A DNA stretch of 64,000 bases from a bacterium (GTDB taxonomy: Bacteria > Patescibacteriota > Saccharimonadia > Saccharimonadales > UBA4665), in the NCBI GenBank assembly GCA_027448765.1, contig DAIDMV010000002.1, positions 366 through 64,365 of the forward strand. Direction: 5' to 3'. Of this stretch, positions 50,839 to 63,465 are shown one piece after another. The notes under the pieces were generated by a model. It was not told the DNA's origin, made no database searches, and saw only the letters and a program-made list of their open reading frames with translations. A program made the position numbers and the translations under genes. How positions within the stretch are numbered: the stretch's first letter is position 1; every line of letters starts with the position of its first letter.

Positions 50839-50867
50839 TTGACAAAAAAGATAAAAAGTAGTATTAT
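50839..50867 (+). promoter_or_regulatory. Near-consensus sigma-70-type promoter
   Basis: TTGACA (50839-50844), a 17-nt spacer, then TATTAT (50862-50867). Confidence 0.65.
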
Positions 50868-51945: not shown

Positions 51946-53619
51946 ATGGGTCAACACAGTATTAAGAAACCATTAAATCGAGTAACACGTAATGGTGCTT
52001 GTTTAATGGCTGATAGTAAACAGCTTGTTAAAGAAACTGCTCATAGTTTAGATAATAGAATAAGTAATACGATTCAAATTGTTGATGATAGTATTAGTAA
52101 TGTAGTTTCAGATGCTAGATTAGAAGTTTCTGAATTATCTAAATGTACTCAACAAAAGGTTAAAGAAATAGCTCCTAAAATTATAACTGCTGTTGTTGAT
52201 GAATTGAGCGGATCATATGAAAAGGCAACCCAAGCTAAGGATAATGCAGCGGAACTGATTAAAGAAACTGCTCAAATTGTTGATAGTGGTATCAGTAATA
52301 CAGTTCAAAACAGTAGACAAGAGTTCTCTGATTTCTCTGAACGCATTCAGCAAAAGATCGGAGAAAATACTCCAAAAATTAAAGCATTAGTAGATCGTGA
52401 AATTCAAGAATCTCGTCAAATTGTTAAGCGTGTATATGTCCAATCCTCAGACGTCTTGAAGTCAACTAATTATTCACGAACCGGAAAAGCTGTTGTTGTT
52501 GGAGTTTTTGTTGTTAATGGTTTAGTTCAAACCAATACAGTTAATGCGTCTCAAAATGTTAGATTTAATCAACAACACAATTCATCTCAGTTTGATAATT
52601 TTCAATTAACTGCTTATAAAAAGAGTAAAGTTGACTCAGATTCATCTGGTTTTATACGACAAGTAGCTCAATATGGACAAACCGTATGGACTCTAGGACA
52701 ACAAGATGGTTTTAGTGTTTCGCAGTGGTCTGGAGTTAATCCCGGAGTTAATCCTAACAATATTCTAGCTGGTCAAACTTATAATATTCCAACGACCCCA
52801 ACTCCTGAATCTACACCAACAACTAATACTCCATCTAATGAAGTACCATCAACTCAAAACACTAGTCTATCAACTACTCCACAATCAAATAATACGACCC
52901 CAACTATAAGCCCTCAATCACCTAATCCATCTGATGTAATTCATTCACATGATCACCTATCACAACCAATTATCGCTGGTCCACCACAATCAAATAATCC
53001 TACTACCCAATCGAATGCTAACAGTTTAACGGCAACTTCTTTAAAAAATCAACCGCAAGTACCGGCTACTAACTTAAATCCTTTCTTAAATCCAAATCCT
53101 TTAAGTATCTCTTCTTTGAAAATTAATAATTTAAATAATGCTTTAGAGGGTACTGTCACTATGCAAGAGGTTATAACTTATTTGCAACAAAATTCAACCT
53201 TAAGTGATACTGCTATTGCCGGTATTGTGGGTAATTTAAATTATGAATCGTCGTTAAATACGGAAAGATATGAAAATACTTTTCCGGCTAATGCTTTAAC
53301 CCCAGCTAATAGCTTAACCACTGCTGAATTAAATAATTCTAGTATGGGCTGGGGTTTAGCTCAATGGACACCGGCTGAAAAAATTATCGGCTGGGCCGAA
53401 AATCAAGATTTAAATCCAAACTCAATGTCAACTCAAGTACAGTTTATTGTAGATAATATTCAAAATTCTCCAGCTCTTTATGAAAACCTTATGGCTGCTA
53501 CTAGTCCTTCTGATGCAGCCGATATTTTTATGAAATATTATGAAATGCCTAGTAACTATAACTCAGCTTCTTCTCGAGAAGCTTACGCTAATCAGGCGTT
53601 TTCCGTAATGCAACAATAA
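51946..53619 (+). CDS. LysM-domain cell-wall hydrolase with phage-tail-lysozyme-like C-terminal domain
   Basis: 557 aa. An N-terminal repeat pair is followed by a TM (AVVVGVFVVNGLV), a LysM-like block (GQTVWTLGQQDGFSVSQW...ILAGQTYNIP) and a P/T/S/N-rich linker. The C-terminal AIAGIVGNLNYESS...GWGLAQWT matches the phage tail lysozyme family pattern. Confidence 0.7.
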   Translation: MGQHSIKKPLNRVTRNGACLMADSKQLVKETAHSLDNRISNTIQIVDDSISNVVSDARLEVSELSKCTQQKVKEIAPKIITAVVDELSGSYEKATQAKDNAAELIKETAQIVDSGISNTVQNSRQEFSDFSERIQQKIGENTPKIKALVDREIQESRQIVKRVYVQSSDVLKSTNYSRTGKAVVVGVFVVNGLVQTNTVNASQNVRFNQQHNSSQFDNFQLTAYKKSKVDSDSSGFIRQVAQYGQTVWTLGQQDGFSVSQWSGVNPGVNPNNILAGQTYNIPTTPTPESTPTTNTPSNEVPSTQNTSLSTTPQSNNTTPTISPQSPNPSDVIHSHDHLSQPIIAGPPQSNNPTTQSNANSLTATSLKNQPQVPATNLNPFLNPNPLSISSLKINNLNNALEGTVTMQEVITYLQQNSTLSDTAIAGIVGNLNYESSLNTERYENTFPANALTPANSLTTAELNNSSMGWGLAQWTPAEKIIGWAENQDLNPNSMSTQVQFIVDNIQNSPALYENLMAATSPSDAADIFMKYYEMPSNYNSASSREAYANQAFSVMQQ

Positions 53620-53621
53620 AA

Positions 53622-55049
53622 TTAAAGAGTTCTAATTTTAATTGTATCGGTTGCTCCAGCTACGCCAAGTTTGGAACCGGAAACGTTAATTACTATATCG
53701 CCTTTGTTAAGTATTTTTTGTTCAATTAACCAATCGGTTAGTTTTGTGCCAACCTGTAGAGTTGCTGGCCGAACATAAACTTTTGTAGCGTAAACAATAG
53801 CTAGTTGGTTGGCTATTTTAGGCTCATTTGTGATAGCTAATAATGGTATAATCGGTCGATAACTTGAGATAGATAATGCTGTAGTCCCTGTTTTGGTTTC
53901 TGCGATGATAGCTTGCACTTGTAGTTGGTCGGCTAATGTTATAATAGCGTTTCCTATGGCAGAAGTAATAGTTGGACTAGCTTGTTTTTTGAAAACTACA
54001 TTTAATGGTGTGTGTTGTTCGGTGTAATTAATGACACGTTTCATGGTTTGAATGGATTCTATTGGGTATTTGCCGGCTGCTGTTTCATCACTTAACATGA
54101 CGCAATCAGCTCCAACTAAAACAGCTGTTGCTATATCTGATACCTCAGCTCGAGTTGGGTCTGGCGCTTCAGTCATAGAAGCGAGCATTTGAGTTGCTAC
54201 GATAGTTGGTTTGTTGTACTGAATACCTAAACCAATTATTTCTCTCTGAATAATCGGGACACTTTCAGCAGGAGTTTCGATAGCTAAATCACCCCTTGCT
54301 ACCATAACGGCATCCGTTATTCGTATAATCTTTTCAATATTTTTAACCGCAGCAGGAGTTTCGATTTTAGCAATTATTTTGGCTGAACTTTTTAAGTGGT
54401 TTAATTTCTCTTTTAACAGTAAAATATCATTTTCTGATTGGACAAAACTGAGAGCTACATAGTCGATATCTTGATGAGCTCCATAGGTAATATCTTCTAT
54501 GTCTTTGGCAGTTAAAATATCACCGTTAAGATCTGTATCTGGTAAATTGATACCTTTTCTTTTGATTAGGATGCCGTCGTTTTCAACTTCAACATAAACA
54601 TTACGGTCTTTAATCTCTTTGACGATAGTTTTGATTTTACCGTCATAGAGCATGATTCTTTCGCCTTTTTGGACTTTTAGGCTTAAATCATATTGGACTG
54701 GTAGTGATTCAACGTCATTAGGTTTTTGAGATTGATGGAAATAAAAGGCTAATTTTTGTCCAGTCTTGACATTAAAAATACCATCAAAATCACCAAGTCT
54801 AATTTTTGGTCCTTGTAGGTCTTGAATAATGGCTACGGGTTTATTGAGTTTTTCTGAAGCATATCTAATCCAACTAATTTGTTGATCTCGTTCGCTATAT
54901 GTTCCATGGGAAAAATTAAGACGAATACCGTTGGCGCCGGCTTGGATTAGATTTTCTATCATTTCATAGCTATTTGTCGCCGGACCAAGGGTTACGATTA
55001 TTTTAGTTCTTTTATATTCTTTAATGTTAATTGGTTTTGATTGATCCAT
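53622..55049 (-). CDS. pyk: Pyruvate kinase
   Basis: 475 aa with RTKIIVTLGPAT, NFSHG and MVARGDLAIE. Confidence 0.95.
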   Translation of the reverse strand: MDQSKPINIKEYKRTKIIVTLGPATNSYEMIENLIQAGANGIRLNFSHGTYSERDQQISWIRYASEKLNKPVAIIQDLQGPKIRLGDFDGIFNVKTGQKLAFYFHQSQKPNDVESLPVQYDLSLKVQKGERIMLYDGKIKTIVKEIKDRNVYVEVENDGILIKRKGINLPDTDLNGDILTAKDIEDITYGAHQDIDYVALSFVQSENDILLLKEKLNHLKSSAKIIAKIETPAAVKNIEKIIRITDAVMVARGDLAIETPAESVPIIQREIIGLGIQYNKPTIVATQMLASMTEAPDPTRAEVSDIATAVLVGADCVMLSDETAAGKYPIESIQTMKRVINYTEQHTPLNVVFKKQASPTITSAIGNAIITLADQLQVQAIIAETKTGTTALSISSYRPIIPLLAITNEPKIANQLAIVYATKVYVRPATLQVGTKLTDWLIEQKILNKGDIVINVSGSKLGVAGATDTIKIRTL

Positions 55050-55098
55050 AAGCCAAGTATTATATAGAAACTTTAATTTGATGTCTAGACGACAGCTA

Positions 55099-56554: not shown

Positions 56555-56744
56555 TTTTATAGTATAACATTAAAGTTATTGATGGTTGGTCCTCCTTTTT
56601 TATAAAGTATTTCTTTTAAAAGGGGTACGTCATTCTTGTAAATAAAACAATCGATTAGTCTTAAACTTTCACAAAGTAAAGGTGATTGGATTAATCAAAT
56701 GTAGTCTCCTTGTATTTATTATTTCAGGCTATTATTATCTAATT

Positions 56745-57569
56745 ATGAATAAAAAAATAGTTAGATCCCATGGTTTTTCGCTAGGTTATGTTCTAGGCTT
56801 TATGGTGTTAATTGTAGTTATAATTTTTATCGGATACTATGTTTTTAAAAATACAAATAATCAACAAACTTCATCTACGACTCACAAAAACAATGTTGTT
56901 AGAGTGCAATGGGCGAGTTTTACAGATCAAAAGACTTCCTTGTCTTTTAGATATCCTACTAGTTGGAAATTAAACAAATTGAAAACTAATAGTAACGCTT
57001 CTGCTTCGAATACAATCTATGAAGCCTATAGTTTAGTGTCACCAAACAACAACGAACTATATATTTCTAATACTAATGTTGGCGGTAAGGGAGGCGCGGC
57101 TTCTAATTGTAGTGCGGCTGCTTTTTCCTTGAACGATCCTTGTGTTTCTCAAAAAGTTTATTCTGCTTTAAAGGTTGCTAATCCTTCTTATAATATTTTA
57201 TCGGCCTCTAATTTTTTGTATCACCTCAATCCATATATTCTAGAAGAAAAGTATAATCCTGGTCGACAAACTCATGATTATTTCCCTCTAGCTGGCTATA
57301 ATGGAATTGCGAGCTCTAACCAATTTAAGAATCTTAATTATCAGTCAAACACTAATAGTTATTTAATTTGTTATGAACCATATAATACAGGTTTATCGCC
57401 TACCCCTGGCGTTAGTCAATATCTATATTTAGGCTATCCTTGCAATTATGATGGCACTGGTTTGAGTGCAATTTACAGAGTTCAAAATAAGGCTAGTTTT
57501 CAATCGTCAAACGCAAAACTGGCAATTCAAGTCATGCAATCAATTAGTTTTAAACCTTCTACAAAGTAA
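56745..57569 (+). CDS. Membrane-anchored or secreted hypothetical protein
   Basis: N-terminal TM (LGYVLGFMVLIVVIIFIGYYVF) and a Cys-containing extracytoplasmic domain. The track ORF starts at GTG 56682; ATG 56745 (MNKKIV) is likelier. Confidence 0.6.
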   Translation: MNKKIVRSHGFSLGYVLGFMVLIVVIIFIGYYVFKNTNNQQTSSTTHKNNVVRVQWASFTDQKTSLSFRYPTSWKLNKLKTNSNASASNTIYEAYSLVSPNNNELYISNTNVGGKGGAASNCSAAAFSLNDPCVSQKVYSALKVANPSYNILSASNFLYHLNPYILEEKYNPGRQTHDYFPLAGYNGIASSNQFKNLNYQSNTNSYLICYEPYNTGLSPTPGVSQYLYLGYPCNYDGTGLSAIYRVQNKASFQSSNAKLAIQVMQSISFKPSTK

Positions 57570-57681: not shown

Positions 57682-57710
57682 TTGACGTATTTATACTTAA
57701 GTACTATAAT
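57682..57710 (+). promoter_or_regulatory. Near-consensus sigma-70-type promoter of the 57739-59457 operon
   Basis: TTGACG (57682-57687), a 17-nt spacer, then TATAAT (57705-57710). A GGAG RBS lies 8 nt before ATG 57739. Confidence 0.7.
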
Positions 57711-57738
57711 ATAGTAATTAAGTAAATGGAGTTATGTT

Positions 57739-58335
57739 ATGGAACAACAAAGTCTTGAAGTGCAAGGGTCTATTTTGCCAATTTTAACAACCGGAGAATT
57801 GGATTGGAAAAGTGTTTATCAAATGGAAATATCTGAATCAGCTTTATTAGCGTTGGCTAAGAATGAATCAGATGATTGTCTGGGTGATGGTCGAGCTTTT
57901 CGTGCTATTAAATCCGGTTTTAATTTTGTTCAAACCTTACTTACCAAATCTGAACAAGTTCCGTCTAGCAATTGTCCTGTTAAAACTATGGGTGATGTCG
58001 TTGAATTGGTCGCTGTTTTTAGGGAGAATAATCCAAAACCTGAAACTGTTCAACATGTTTTAGATCAGGGACACGAAGTTACTAAAGTCGGCTTAATTAT
58101 TGAATCTAGTCGTGACCTTGGTATTAGTATTGATAATTTTTGTGCATTAGTTCAACTATATGCTGGAGATATTGATTATGCTAGGGATCAAGTCGAAAAA
58201 ATAGTAGATGCCATACCCGAAAATAAGCATAAGGTGAGACATGCTAGAGTTAATGATTTTATCGAAAGGCTTCGAGCAGGTGTGTTTGATGATGGTCAAG
58301 ATATAGAATTTGTTGACGAAGAGGTCGCTAATTAA
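57739..58335 (+). CDS. Acidic hypothetical protein (partner of the J-domain protein)
   Basis: 198 aa, soluble and acidic, with a C-terminal DDGQDIEFVDEEVAN. No family recognised. Confidence 0.65.
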   Translation: MEQQSLEVQGSILPILTTGELDWKSVYQMEISESALLALAKNESDDCLGDGRAFRAIKSGFNFVQTLLTKSEQVPSSNCPVKTMGDVVELVAVFRENNPKPETVQHVLDQGHEVTKVGLIIESSRDLGISIDNFCALVQLYAGDIDYARDQVEKIVDAIPENKHKVRHARVNDFIERLRAGVFDDGQDIEFVDEEVAN

Positions 58336-58341
58336 TTTACT

Positions 58342-59457
58342 ATGAGTCCTAAGAAAACCACCAATTCTTTCAGTGATGCCTTAGACGCCATAAATCGTGA
58401 GCGTAATCCCTTAGGAGCATTATTTTGTTCTCCAGAGTTGGTTAGGCGACTTAGCGATGAGGAAGCTTTAAAGATTGTGGTTAATGGTATATATAAGGCT
58501 TTGATGATGCAGTATCATCCAGATAGAGGTGTGACGAAAAATTCAACTAGCACGGATTTATTAACTGGTTTTCGGGCTGCTAAAGAAAAAATAGAGCAGG
58601 ATCCTTCAAAAGCTCGGCAAGAATTTTTATCTCTTCAAAAAACTAAAAAAAATGTTAAAACTGTGGATAAATCTATACTTGAACCAACAAGAGAAGTTTT
58701 ACCACGAAATTTTGTTCAAGAGTCTACAGCTAGCCGTTTATTCGAAGCCTTTATGTCTCGCGAAACAATTAAAGACATTGATTCGGCAAGAATTTTATTT
58801 CAGCCAATGCAATTAAAAGGTAAAGATCAATTATTATCAGTTCAGACTGACCGTGGAAAATCTAACCTAACATTGATGCAGTATGATAATAGCTTTGAGT
58901 TTAATCAGGAGCTTTTAGGGTATTTTAATGATATTGAAAACAAAATTGGACATCAGCCTGTCGCTCTATATGTTTCAAAAAAATCGGCTGATATTGTATC
59001 TCGCGATGGTCATTTAATTGGCATCGAAGGAGCTGAACTTAGACAATATGCCTTTGAAGAAGGTTGGTACCAAATTAAGGGTGAGAAAACTGCCAGCCGT
59101 GATTTTAGAAGTTTAATTCACTTTAAGCCCTTAGATCAAAAAACACAACCAATTCAATTATTTGGTAGTGTACCTCAAGATATTGAAAGAAAAAATGGAT
59201 TTAAAAAATTGGACGGTTATTACGATGATGCAGATATCGTTTATGGTTCATTATCGGGTCAAAATGTCGGTCAACGAACGATTCCGACTTGGGAGATTGA
59301 GTTGTTGATACCTAATAGTATGTTCACTGATATTTTAAACCAGGGTTCATTAAAGCCAATTTTTGAACCAACCGCCGCCACTATTGGAGAATTAAAAAAT
59401 GGACATAAATTAATTTTAGGTCAAGCAATTACTTCGGCAGTGACTTATAGAAAATAG
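58342..59457 (+). CDS. J-domain protein with an uncharacterised C-terminal domain of about 270 aa
   Basis: 371 aa. NPLGALF...SDEEALKIVVNGIYKALMMQYHPDRG...FRAAKEKIEQD follows the J-domain helix II / HPD / helix III pattern, with the HPD codons at 58516-58524. 6-nt gap from the upstream gene. Confidence 0.65.
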   Translation: MSPKKTTNSFSDALDAINRERNPLGALFCSPELVRRLSDEEALKIVVNGIYKALMMQYHPDRGVTKNSTSTDLLTGFRAAKEKIEQDPSKARQEFLSLQKTKKNVKTVDKSILEPTREVLPRNFVQESTASRLFEAFMSRETIKDIDSARILFQPMQLKGKDQLLSVQTDRGKSNLTLMQYDNSFEFNQELLGYFNDIENKIGHQPVALYVSKKSADIVSRDGHLIGIEGAELRQYAFEEGWYQIKGEKTASRDFRSLIHFKPLDQKTQPIQLFGSVPQDIERKNGFKKLDGYYDDADIVYGSLSGQNVGQRTIPTWEIELLIPNSMFTDILNQGSLKPIFEPTAATIGELKNGHKLILGQAITSAVTYRK

Positions 59458-59583: not shown

Positions 59584-60453
59584 GTGCTATCATCAAATTC
59601 TAACAATATCGCGCTAGGCCATAGTCCTGTAAGTAGTGGTTCAGCTGCCCTTGTAGCTATTATATTTGCCGTAGTATGTATTATTGTGTATTTTTTTACG
59701 GCTTTTGTCTTGAGTAAAATCTTTCATAAAGCAAATCGTAAAAAGAGCCTAGCCTATATTCCTGTTTATAATTATTGGATACTTTTTGAAATTGCTGGTT
59801 TACCTGGCTGGTTAGTTTTTTTATACATTTTATCAGTTATTCCGATAATTGGTTATTTGATTGCTTTTATTCTAGGAATAATTTTAGCAGTTAAACTAGC
59901 TAAAAAATTTAATAAATCAATGGTTTTTACTATCTTTGGTTTAATTATTTTTAACGTTGTCGGTTATCTAATGTTAGCATTTGGTAAAGCACAATATAAC
60001 ACTTCAGATGTTCCACCAACTGGCGGAGGCACTACACCCAATCAATTAGATCAAGCAACGACTCAGTCACCTCAGAACGACCTGTCTTCTAACATAATAA
60101 CCCCTAACATGAATGTAACTTCAGATGTTCCACCAGCCGTAGTAGCTGAACCCAATCAAGTTTATAGTGATTCACTGGTTAATCAGACGATACCAAACGT
60201 TGACGTGCCTGAAGCTGTAAATCCTATGTCAACTAATGATCCAGTAGTTATTTCCAATCCAATGGAATCATCAAATGCAGCGATTAATAATCAGCCTAGT
60301 GTAACAAATACTGATAACATGAATCAGGTCAATCCAACAGATAATCTAGCTCAGCCAGCCGAAGATAGCTCTTCTTCTAATAGTTCACCATCATTCCCTG
60401 CACCAGAAAATCAATCAACTGAAACTCAAGATTCATCTCAAAGTAATTTTTAA
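59584..60453 (+). CDS. Small polytopic membrane domain (DUF5684-like) with a long P/S/T/N-rich tail
   Basis: 289 aa. YIPVYNYWILFEIAGLPGW resembles the DUF5684 motif as I recall it. GTG start with AAGGA 9 nt upstream. Confidence 0.55.
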   Translation: MLSSNSNNIALGHSPVSSGSAALVAIIFAVVCIIVYFFTAFVLSKIFHKANRKKSLAYIPVYNYWILFEIAGLPGWLVFLYILSVIPIIGYLIAFILGIILAVKLAKKFNKSMVFTIFGLIIFNVVGYLMLAFGKAQYNTSDVPPTGGGTTPNQLDQATTQSPQNDLSSNIITPNMNVTSDVPPAVVAEPNQVYSDSLVNQTIPNVDVPEAVNPMSTNDPVVISNPMESSNAAINNQPSVTNTDNMNQVNPTDNLAQPAEDSSSSNSSPSFPAPENQSTETQDSSQSNF

Positions 60454-62297: not shown

Positions 62298-62447
62298 CTA
62301 GGACTTTCGTCTGCTTGCAAACAGGCTATAAATGAATAAAATAATTGCGATTATGAGGAGAATGTGAATCAATCCCCCACCTATATGAACCACAAAAAAC
62401 CCCAAAGCCCATAATATGACTAAAATAATGGCGATAGTTATTAACAT
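62298..62447 (-). CDS. lmo0937-family-like small membrane protein (49 aa, absent from the ORF track)
   Basis: The hand translation MLITIAIILVILWALGFFVVHIGGGLIHILLIIAIILFIYSLFASRRKS matches the LW.LGF....GG.IH.LL.IA pattern of that family. Confidence 0.6.
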   Translation of the reverse strand: MLITIAIILVILWALGFFVVHIGGGLIHILLIIAIILFIYSLFASRRKS

Positions 62448-62593
62448 AATAAACCTTTCACTGATTAATTTTGTGAAATGAAGCCCGGTTGCTGTAGTGA
62501 CATCTTTTGATGTTGCTTGTAGCCTAGTGACTCATTGTTTTTATAATAGTCCTTACTGCTTTGATGGTCTGTGTTCAAGATCACGAGACCTAG

Positions 62594-63248
62594 TTTTCTG
62601 TTATTGTCTGGCATTGGGTTGGTTATGAGTCTAGTTATACTTGGTCAGAGCTACTGCAACAGCTACCAGCCCCGACAATCGTAGTCTGTGATGGTCAGAA
62701 AGGCATACTACTAGCTATTGCTCGTTGTTGGTCGACTACCAAGGTCCAACGCTGTATAATTCCATGTCTGGCAGAACATTAGAACCAAGCTAACCCTGCA
62801 TCCCCAAACTGAAGCTGGGGTAGAACTATTACAACTCACCAAAGATTTACTGAAAGGTATTAAAACTAAAGAAGAAGCCAGTAAGTGGATCAGACAACTT
62901 AAAGCCTGGGAACAAACCTATGGTGATTTCATCAAGGAACGAACATATATATCTATTCCAGTCCCCAACCAAAGAAAATGGTGGTATACACACAGAGGGT
63001 TAAGATCAGCTTACAAACAGCTAGATAAACTAATTAAAGATAAACAGTTATTTACTTATCTAGAAACTGATCTTACTGAAGAATTAATCCCTAAAACTAC
63101 TAATTATGTAGAGGGTGGTATTAACTCTCAACTTAGAACCAAATTGAAGCTTCATAGAGGCATGAATGAAGAGCATCAAAGACGACTAGTTGACTGGTAT
63201 CTTTATAGCCGAACTAAAGACCAAAAACCAACACGAAATTTCCTATAA
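62594..63248 (+). pseudogene. 5'-truncated, frameshifted DDE transposase remnant (IS256/mutator-like motifs)
   Basis: Frame A (62594-62782) reads ...WSELLQQLPAPTIVVCDGQKGILLAIARCWSTTKVQRCII then stops. The +1 frame from about 62760 continues FHVWQNIRTKL...TNYVEGGINSQLRTKLKLHRGMNEEHQRRLVDWYLY to the stop at 63246-63248. The DG..G...A....W....QRC..H...N pattern is transposase-like. No start codon and no inverted repeats identified. Confidence 0.6.
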
Positions 63249-63465
63249 CTTCCATTAACAAATCTTCCTTAGCTACAGAATCATTATTAAGTATGGAAAT
63301 AGTCTTATCTTCTAGCAGCTTATTAAGTTCAATTAAATCTAAATTAGTATTAATATTTAAAGTTATATTAATGAAGTCAACGGTGAGCCAAATAGAACGT
63401 AACTGACGATTTATCCTATCCTCACCTCTGTTATTTTGATCTTTTTTAGCGGTTATATTAGTCAT
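63214..63465 (-). CDS. Hypothetical protein, possibly truncated by the adjacent IS remnant
   Basis: 83 aa. A strong RBS (AGGAGG) lies 6 nt before the ATG. The last 11 sense codons and the stop are antisense to the transposase remnant. Confidence 0.45.
   Translation of the reverse strand: MTNITAKKDQNNRGEDRINRQLRSIWLTVDFINITLNINTNLDLIELNKLLEDKTISILNNDSVAKEDLLMEVIGNFVLVFGL

Follow-up and report, generated by a model that had tools for sequence, protein, structure and literature searches.

A two-gene locus of a Saccharimonadales bacterium encoding a divergent class C J-domain protein and a putative partner protein

Layout and control signals of the locus

The subject of this study is a pair of adjacent genes at positions 57682-59457 of a 64-kb window, by which we mean the whole stretch of DNA analysed (part of contig DAIDMV010000002.1 of a Saccharimonadales bacterium). 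The first open reading frame (ORF), ORF1 (57739-58335, + strand), encodes an acidic protein of 198 amino acids (aa), which its charge, AlphaFold2 model and homologues characterise as an all-helical putative partner of the second gene product. The second, ORF2 (58342-59457, + strand), encodes a class C J-domain protein of 371 aa. The two genes are separated by 6 nucleotides (nt), the layout already given in a preliminary description of this DNA. As set out below, comparison with relatives shows a genuine but divergent J-domain in ORF2, joined to a conserved domain that has no recognisable family, and the two genes are inherited as one unit. Two smaller reading frames nested in the pair, 57863-58063 and 58652-58816, were rejected as out-of-frame artefacts.

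A sigma-70-type promoter (57682-57710, + strand) precedes ORF1, with TTGACG at 57682-57687, a 17-nt spacer and TATAAT at 57705-57710. It agrees with the consensus at 11 of 12 positions and is the top-scoring site within 56-61 kb, so the near-consensus promoter of the preliminary description is present as claimed. By itself, the match is not beyond chance in such AT-rich DNA: three 11/12 matches with a 17-nt spacer are observed in the window against 1.69 expected, and at least three occurred in 25 of 100 shuffles. The placement of the promoter upstream of ORF1 is correct, and in relatives both hexamers persist, the -35 as TTGACA or TTGACT and the -10 as TATAGT. The only 11/12 matches in the window are those at 50839-50867 (+ strand), 55059-55087 (- strand) and 57682-57710 (+ strand). 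All three are intergenic and lie directly upstream of a gene in the matching orientation, which suggests that the organism uses canonical -35/-10 promoters.

A 31-bp near-palindrome (57694-57724) is centred on, and straddles, the -10 hexamer. Its two 15-nt arms, TACTTAAGTACTATA and TATAGTAATTAAGTA, are 93% complementary, and its 10-bp core, TACTTAAGTA, occurs once in the window. The palindrome is weaker in relatives, in which about 12 of 15 positions pair. It may be a repressor operator. A ribosome-binding site, GGAG (57728-57731, + strand), can be read from the sequence 7 nt ahead of the ATG of ORF1. The start of ORF2 lacks a well-placed Shine-Dalgarno sequence, which makes translational coupling of ORF2 to ORF1 plausible.

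The J-domain protein

The J-domain of ORF2 (58405-58629, + strand) covers approximately residues 22-96, with an 8-residue insert ahead of helix II, as delimited by profile comparison, hhalign and AlphaFold2. The HPD tripeptide stands at residues 59-61 (codons at 58516-58524), where it was originally noticed. The ORF2 sequence alone scores poorly against the Pfam J-domain model PF00226, with 12.6 bits against a cutoff of 27.8, an E-value of 0.16 and only 14 aligned residues. Formally, then, the single sequence has no J-domain match above threshold, an outcome that the preliminary description had itself counted against its claim. Single-sequence scans of both ORF1 and ORF2 against Pfam, NCBIfam, PHROGs and PADLOC likewise gave nothing except sub-threshold noise.

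The assignment of ORF2 to the J-domain proteins is sound on the strength of its family profile, not of the single sequence. When 1.84 billion representative sequences were scanned exhaustively with HMMER, 13 clusters of ORF2 homologues emerged, 342-405 aa in length with one exception of 282 aa. In the family alignment of 15 sequences, the distant members of which are 19-25% identical to ORF2, every member has H59 and D61, and 14 of the 15 have P60. PF00226 is matched by 12 of the 15 members, the best with an E-value of 2.3e-7. Compared with the PDB, the family profile matches about 50 solved J-domains, including those of CbpA, DNAJA/B/C, Sec63 and HscB, and almost nothing else; the best match is 1bqz, from E. 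coli DnaJ (5.7e-6). When aligned by hhalign with residues 1-76 of DnaJ, residues 22-89 of ORF2 fall on residues 5-62 of DnaJ, over helices I-IV (94.5% probability, E-value 7.7e-8). Of the 15 members, 14 have a basic residue (K or R) at the position equivalent to K26 of DnaJ, and 12 at that equivalent to R22. The whole J region is basic, with an isoelectric point (pI) of 9.5.

The AlphaFold2 model of ORF2 (mean predicted local distance difference test score, pLDDT, of 73; predicted template modelling score of 0.58) contains helices at residues 40-58, 69-86 and 88-104, with HPD following the first of them. The expected hairpin of helix II, HPD and helix III is thus found in the model. Taken together, profile, alignment and model bear out at the family level the recognisable J-domain claimed for the start of ORF2, and they establish that the domain is genuine but divergent. 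From the sequence we infer that this domain would engage Hsp70/DnaK.

The J-domain is followed by a predicted flexible linker rich in Lys, Ser and Thr (58645-58722, + strand; residues ~102-127), with pLDDT values below 50 and a ratio of nonsynonymous to synonymous substitution rates (dN/dS) of 0.84-1.3, close to neutral. The remainder of the protein (58723-59454, + strand; residues ~128-371) is modelled by AlphaFold2 as a mixed alpha/beta domain of about 240 aa, with pLDDT values of 80-93 except in a loop at residues 284-312. Its dN/dS of 0.21-0.31 is the lowest in ORF2 and marks it as the most constrained portion of the protein; the J-domain evolves faster, at 0.4-0.56 in the window clade. 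Conserved positions of the C-terminal domain include W242, G247, L273, G275, P339 and G360. None of these is of a catalytic type, which favours a binding role.

This domain has no significant match in Pfam, NCBIfam or the PDB sequences, and a Foldseek search of its model against the PDB and BFVD returned nothing at E-values below 0.01. The claim that the region after the J-domain lacks a recognisable family therefore holds for sequence and fold searches alike. In both structure libraries, the weak Foldseek matches are enriched in the LplA (lipoate)/biotin-ligase and PheRS-alpha core. The TM (template modelling) values of these matches are about 0.1, and hence the resemblance is a lead only.

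The partner gene and the chromosomal setting of the pair

A word-indexed homology search found four close relatives for each of the two proteins, and a scan of genome contigs found one close relative. A third round of searching, based on the profile of 15 sequences, yielded one new protein only (P0020), from Candidatus Microgenomates. The family-wide alignments offer no conserved stretch that could serve as a query for related loci. Gene pairing was read from the ORF2 side, by inspecting the neighbours of ORF2 homologues. Genomic context is available for 11 ORF2 lineages, and in all 11 the gene directly preceding the ORF2 homologue, in the same orientation, is a homologue of ORF1. The lineages counted are the window clade (loci L001-L008 and L019), L009 from Candidatus Microgenomates, L010-12, L013, L014-15, L016, L017, L018, L020, L021 and L022. 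The upstream gene encodes 198-232 aa; at one extreme it overlaps the ORF2 homologue by 11 nt, and at the other a gap of 28 nt lies between them. An hhalign comparison of the upstream genes of the close clade with those of the distant loci demonstrates their homology (97.6% probability, E-value 3e-12, 171 columns). In addition, a hidden Markov model (HMM) of ORF1 finds three loci that were not used in its training, at E-values of 4e-43, 2e-34 and 6e-5, and matches nothing else in 623 stop-to-stop segments of 60 aa or longer. The two genes thus form one unit, as had been proposed at the outset.

The genes around the pair vary by lineage and include ArgRS and UvrD, AlaRS, MnmA and ATP synthase, GltX, and ABC transporters. 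No third conserved gene was found; the genes downstream in the distant loci are related neither to each other nor to the DUF5684 gene that follows the pair in the window. Because the flanks differ between lineages, the linkage joins ORF1 to ORF2 and involves no larger operon. The loci carrying the pair range in GC content from 31% to 51%, and the module is therefore old within its group. For both genes dN/dS is below 1, and both are under purifying selection. The family is nevertheless tiny, with its 13 sequence clusters from uncultured bacteria, and it is known from metagenome-assembled genomes only; GCA_027427915.1, GCA_016199005.1 and GCA_943358135.1 are among those that carry the pair. Separately, a divergent TrmB/MarR-type regulator is encoded just upstream of the pair in three loci (L017, 2454-3203; L020, 8477-9211; L022, 3453-4187). 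It is absent from the window clade, and the three lineages that carry it are distant from the window and related to each other.

The ORF1 protein is acidic, as first described, with a pI of 4.55 and a net charge of -16, and its homologues are acidic in 7 of 8 lineages (pI 4.2-5.1). Its AlphaFold2 model, which was built from a shallow alignment of 4 sequences, is all-helical, with a pLDDT of 69.9 overall and of about 90 over residues 100-150. The predicted core resembles a helical hairpin or helical repeat. The N-terminal ~30 residues are predicted to be disordered, and within them lies a near-invariant Leu-Pro motif. ORF1 does lack a recognisable family: none of 11 ORF1-family members matches Pfam, there is no acceptable PDB match, and the fold search returned designed helical repeats only.

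Several identities for ORF1 were considered and rejected. First, a PDB profile search matched the designed dTor toroids with an E-value of 7e-7, yet no single stretch passes alone, and we rejected the match as an artefact of summed repeat matches. Second, ORF1 is not a J-like domain of the Pam16 type, given an hhalign probability of 0.7% against the ORF2 family. Third, ORF1 is not GrpE-like: PF01025 is not matched, and the model is all-helical without a beta domain. Finally, the helical-repeat model and the lack of any Pfam match in the 11 members argue against a CbpM or MerR-like protein.

The preliminary description placed the pair in a run of accessory genes, possibly acquired horizontally and possibly with a role in defence. 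Part of its compositional argument stands: the GC contents of ORF1 and ORF2 (0.363 and 0.355) exceed the gene mean of 0.314 and rank 3 and 7 of 58. However, GC at third codon positions (GC3) is ordinary (0.206 and 0.250, mean 0.227), and codon-usage distance ranks only 37 and 41 of 58. Moreover, nine related loci share the gene order pyruvate kinase, aldo-keto reductase, NUDIX, a 274-aa gene, ORF1, ORF2 and DUF5684, and in distant lineages the pair is found beside aminoacyl-tRNA synthetases, ATP synthase and other housekeeping genes. Typical GC3 and codon usage, conserved synteny and housekeeping neighbours argue against horizontal acquisition, and the locus is native to the chromosome.

The transposase remnant that had been cited in favour of acquisition is real, in the form of a frameshifted IS256/Mutator-type pseudogene at approximately 62540-63250 (+ strand; PF00872, E-value 1e-9 for the stitched translation). 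However, it is 3 kb away, with three genes in between (DUF5684, a methyltransferase and NUDIX), and the conserved synteny ends before it.

These observations bear on whether the pair could be a mobile, DnaK-hijacking module that serves in defence, as toxin and antitoxin, or as effector and immunity protein. The pair is a small two-gene cassette with a patchy and rare distribution (13 clusters among 1.84 billion representatives). At non-synonymous sites it evolves about 7-10 times faster than pyruvate kinase (53622-55049), with a dN/dS of 0.27-0.46 against 0.04-0.05; one locus lies near type IV secretion-like genes, and there is the transposase remnant 3 kb off. Each of these would fit a defence module. 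However, no PADLOC-DB 2.0 family matches ORF1, ORF2 or two distant homologues of each at E-values up to 1. No relatives of the pair were found among the IMG/VR viral contigs, and none in phage and plasmid records. Neither protein has a toxin-like or enzymatic signature, and the native codon usage and GC3, the conserved chromosomal synteny and the housekeeping neighbours in other lineages all speak for a resident gene pair. Fast evolution of this kind is typical of lineage-specific genes. We consider a role in defence, or as an effector and its immunity protein, highly improbable.

Several further features of the window were recorded. Immediately upstream of the pair, 56682-57569 (+ strand) encodes a membrane-anchored Ser/Asn-rich protein without a family; immediately downstream, 59584-60453 (+ strand) encodes the DUF5684 membrane protein, which has a long low-complexity tail. 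Both are conserved only in the close clade, so that no link between them and the pair can be inferred. Farther upstream, preceding the pyruvate kinase gene, 51946-53619 (+ strand) encodes a protein of 557 aa whose C-terminal domain is of the phage-tail-lysozyme type (PF18013). In one relative this gene is split into two ORFs of 277 and 192 aa (L001 943-2482 compared with L002 752-2482). At the other end, the transposase remnant explains a GC-richer, ORF-poor stretch at 62.3-63.2 kb, and Rfam gave no RNA in 61.9-64 kb. Adjoining the remnant is a small ORF (62298-62447, - strand) for a very hydrophobic 49-aa protein with two predicted membrane helices.

Proposed function and relation to known J-protein systems

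J-domain proteins decide what Hsp70 works on. The architecture of ORF2 is unlike those of DnaJ, CbpA, DjlA and HscB, in agreement with the preliminary description. It shares with the class A protein DnaJ a J-domain with HPD, but lacks the Gly/Phe-rich region, the CXXCXGXG zinc-finger repeats (ORF2 has one Cys in total) and the DnaJ_C domain. None of the 15 family members matches PF01556 or PF00684, and no DnaJ C-terminal structures are among the Foldseek matches. DjlA also has a J-domain with HPD. However, its J-domain is C-terminal and is preceded by an N-terminal transmembrane segment and a TerB-like domain, whereas that of ORF2 is N-terminal, with no visible hydrophobic segment and no TerB match.

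ORF2 is best placed in class C, and the preliminary view that such J-proteins are uncommon does not hold. Class C J-proteins form the majority of the family and are its largest and most heterogeneous class; their architectures number in the thousands, and a J-domain is the sole annotation of about 100,000 proteins (PMC10410713). The "JD-only" or unannotated members resemble ORF2 in joining a J-domain to a region without an annotated domain. Compared with class C in general, the ORF2 subfamily is distinguished by a specific, conserved and confidently folded C-terminal domain and by an obligate upstream partner gene.

Among well-studied systems, one close parallel is that of HscB, IscU and HscA. 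HscB, like ORF2, combines an N-terminal J-domain with a dedicated, non-DnaJ C-terminal domain for binding a single partner. The partner, IscU, carries LPPVK, a Pro-containing peptide recognised by Hsp70, which may be compared with the conserved Leu-Pro in the disordered N-terminus of ORF1. The parallel does not extend to homology. HscB is a protein of about 170 aa whose HSCB_C domain is a 3-helix bundle, in contrast to the mixed alpha/beta domain of ~240 aa in ORF2; PF07743 is not matched, and weak matches to TIGR00714 (E-value 0.028) run through the J-domain only. IscU is unrelated to ORF1, and the neighbourhood of the pair contains neither a dedicated Hsp70 gene nor Fe-S genes.

We propose that ORF2 serves as a specialised J-domain co-chaperone of class C, with ORF1 as its dedicated partner, a proposal to which we give an even chance. 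ORF1 and ORF2 would be co-transcribed, and probably translationally coupled, so that the two proteins are made together. The J-domain would use its HPD loop and basic helix II to dock on ATP-bound DnaK and trigger ATP hydrolysis, and this HPD-dependent step would lock DnaK on. The flexible linker would tether the J-domain to the C-terminal domain, which most likely binds the acidic, helical protein encoded by ORF1. In this way DnaK would be directed to ORF1 itself, or to cargo held by ORF1. By analogy with the LPPVK peptide of IscU, the hydrophobic Leu-Pro peptide in the disordered N-terminus of ORF1 is a candidate DnaK-binding site. Overall, such a scheme would resemble HscB delivering IscU to HscA. 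Physical contact between the two proteins is likewise predicted, and ORF1 may be a client or an adaptor.

The main rival of this proposal is provided by another pair. In E. coli, CbpM inhibits CbpA, and the cbpA and cbpM genes form one operon; the profile matches of ORF2 include PDB entry 3ucs, in which the CbpA J-domain was solved with CbpM. The likeness lies in a J-protein gene that shares its transcript with the gene of a small dedicated partner, which in turn acts on the J-protein. By this precedent, ORF1 would be a modulator that binds the J-domain or the C-terminal domain and gates or blocks access of ORF2 to DnaK, with the real client elsewhere. The strict co-encoding of the two genes is consistent with such a role, as is their complementary charge, with the acidic ORF1 proteins (pI 4.2-5.1 in 7 of 8 lineages) facing a J region of pI 9.5. 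On the other hand, CbpA belongs to class B and has DnaJ_C domains, and its partner CbpM, a MerR-like protein of ~100 aa, is encoded downstream. ORF1, at ~200 aa, is twice that size, helical-repeat-like and encoded upstream; it resembles neither CbpM nor MerR-like folds and matches nothing in Pfam. Furthermore, nothing points to another client. We regard an inhibitory, CbpM-like ORF1 as unlikely, though it is a stronger contender than the alternatives involving defence or, as discussed next, a vestigial J-domain, both of which are less likely.

Several observations weigh against the proposed co-chaperone and partner. The residue equivalent to R22 of DnaJ is Asn in the clade of ORF2 itself, and the J-domain of the window clade is the most eroded of the whole family. 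The model of the C-terminal domain is only moderately confident (mean pLDDT 73, from a 15-sequence alignment). Finally, no DnaK gene was found in the window or in the related loci examined: tblastn searches for DnaK, DnaJ and GrpE (the last with the E. coli protein as query) found none in the window and loci, the only matches being to FtsA.

Some of these facts would also fit a vestigial J-domain, the pair being a structural or regulatory complex built on a "J-like" scaffold that no longer uses Hsp70. The J-domain of the window clade is far below the Pfam threshold and evolves faster than the C-terminal domain, and no DnaK is seen nearby. Against this, HPD is kept across lineages that are only 19-25% identical to ORF2, which argues for selection for Hsp70 contact, and the basic positions of helix II are retained. 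A vestigial J-domain is therefore, in our judgement, very unlikely.

If the co-chaperone proposal is taken to its furthest point, the pair would be a hitherto unrecognised Hsp70-targeting system restricted to one small set of bacteria that are ultra-small or uncultured. In such a system, ORF1 could be a new DnaK-remodelled switch or a new helical-repeat nucleotide-exchange or adaptor factor. ORF2 could then capture clients with its C-terminal domain, which would have a new fold or a catalytically dead derivative of the LplA/class II synthetase-like fold. We consider this extended version quite unlikely.

The kind of J-protein described here is already known; uncharacterised class C J-proteins are numerous, and nothing is overturned by adding one. 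What is new is a C-terminal domain without a family, a partner without a family, and the strict linkage of both. Pfam and NCBIfam contain no family for ORF1 or for the C-terminal domain of ORF2, so that each is a candidate for a new one. For most class C members we know of no client. In the case of ORF2, gene linkage alone names a likely client or regulator, the ~200-aa partner encoded in 11 of 11 lineages, and this gives a J-protein and partner that can be tested directly, in organisms whose proteomes are very small.

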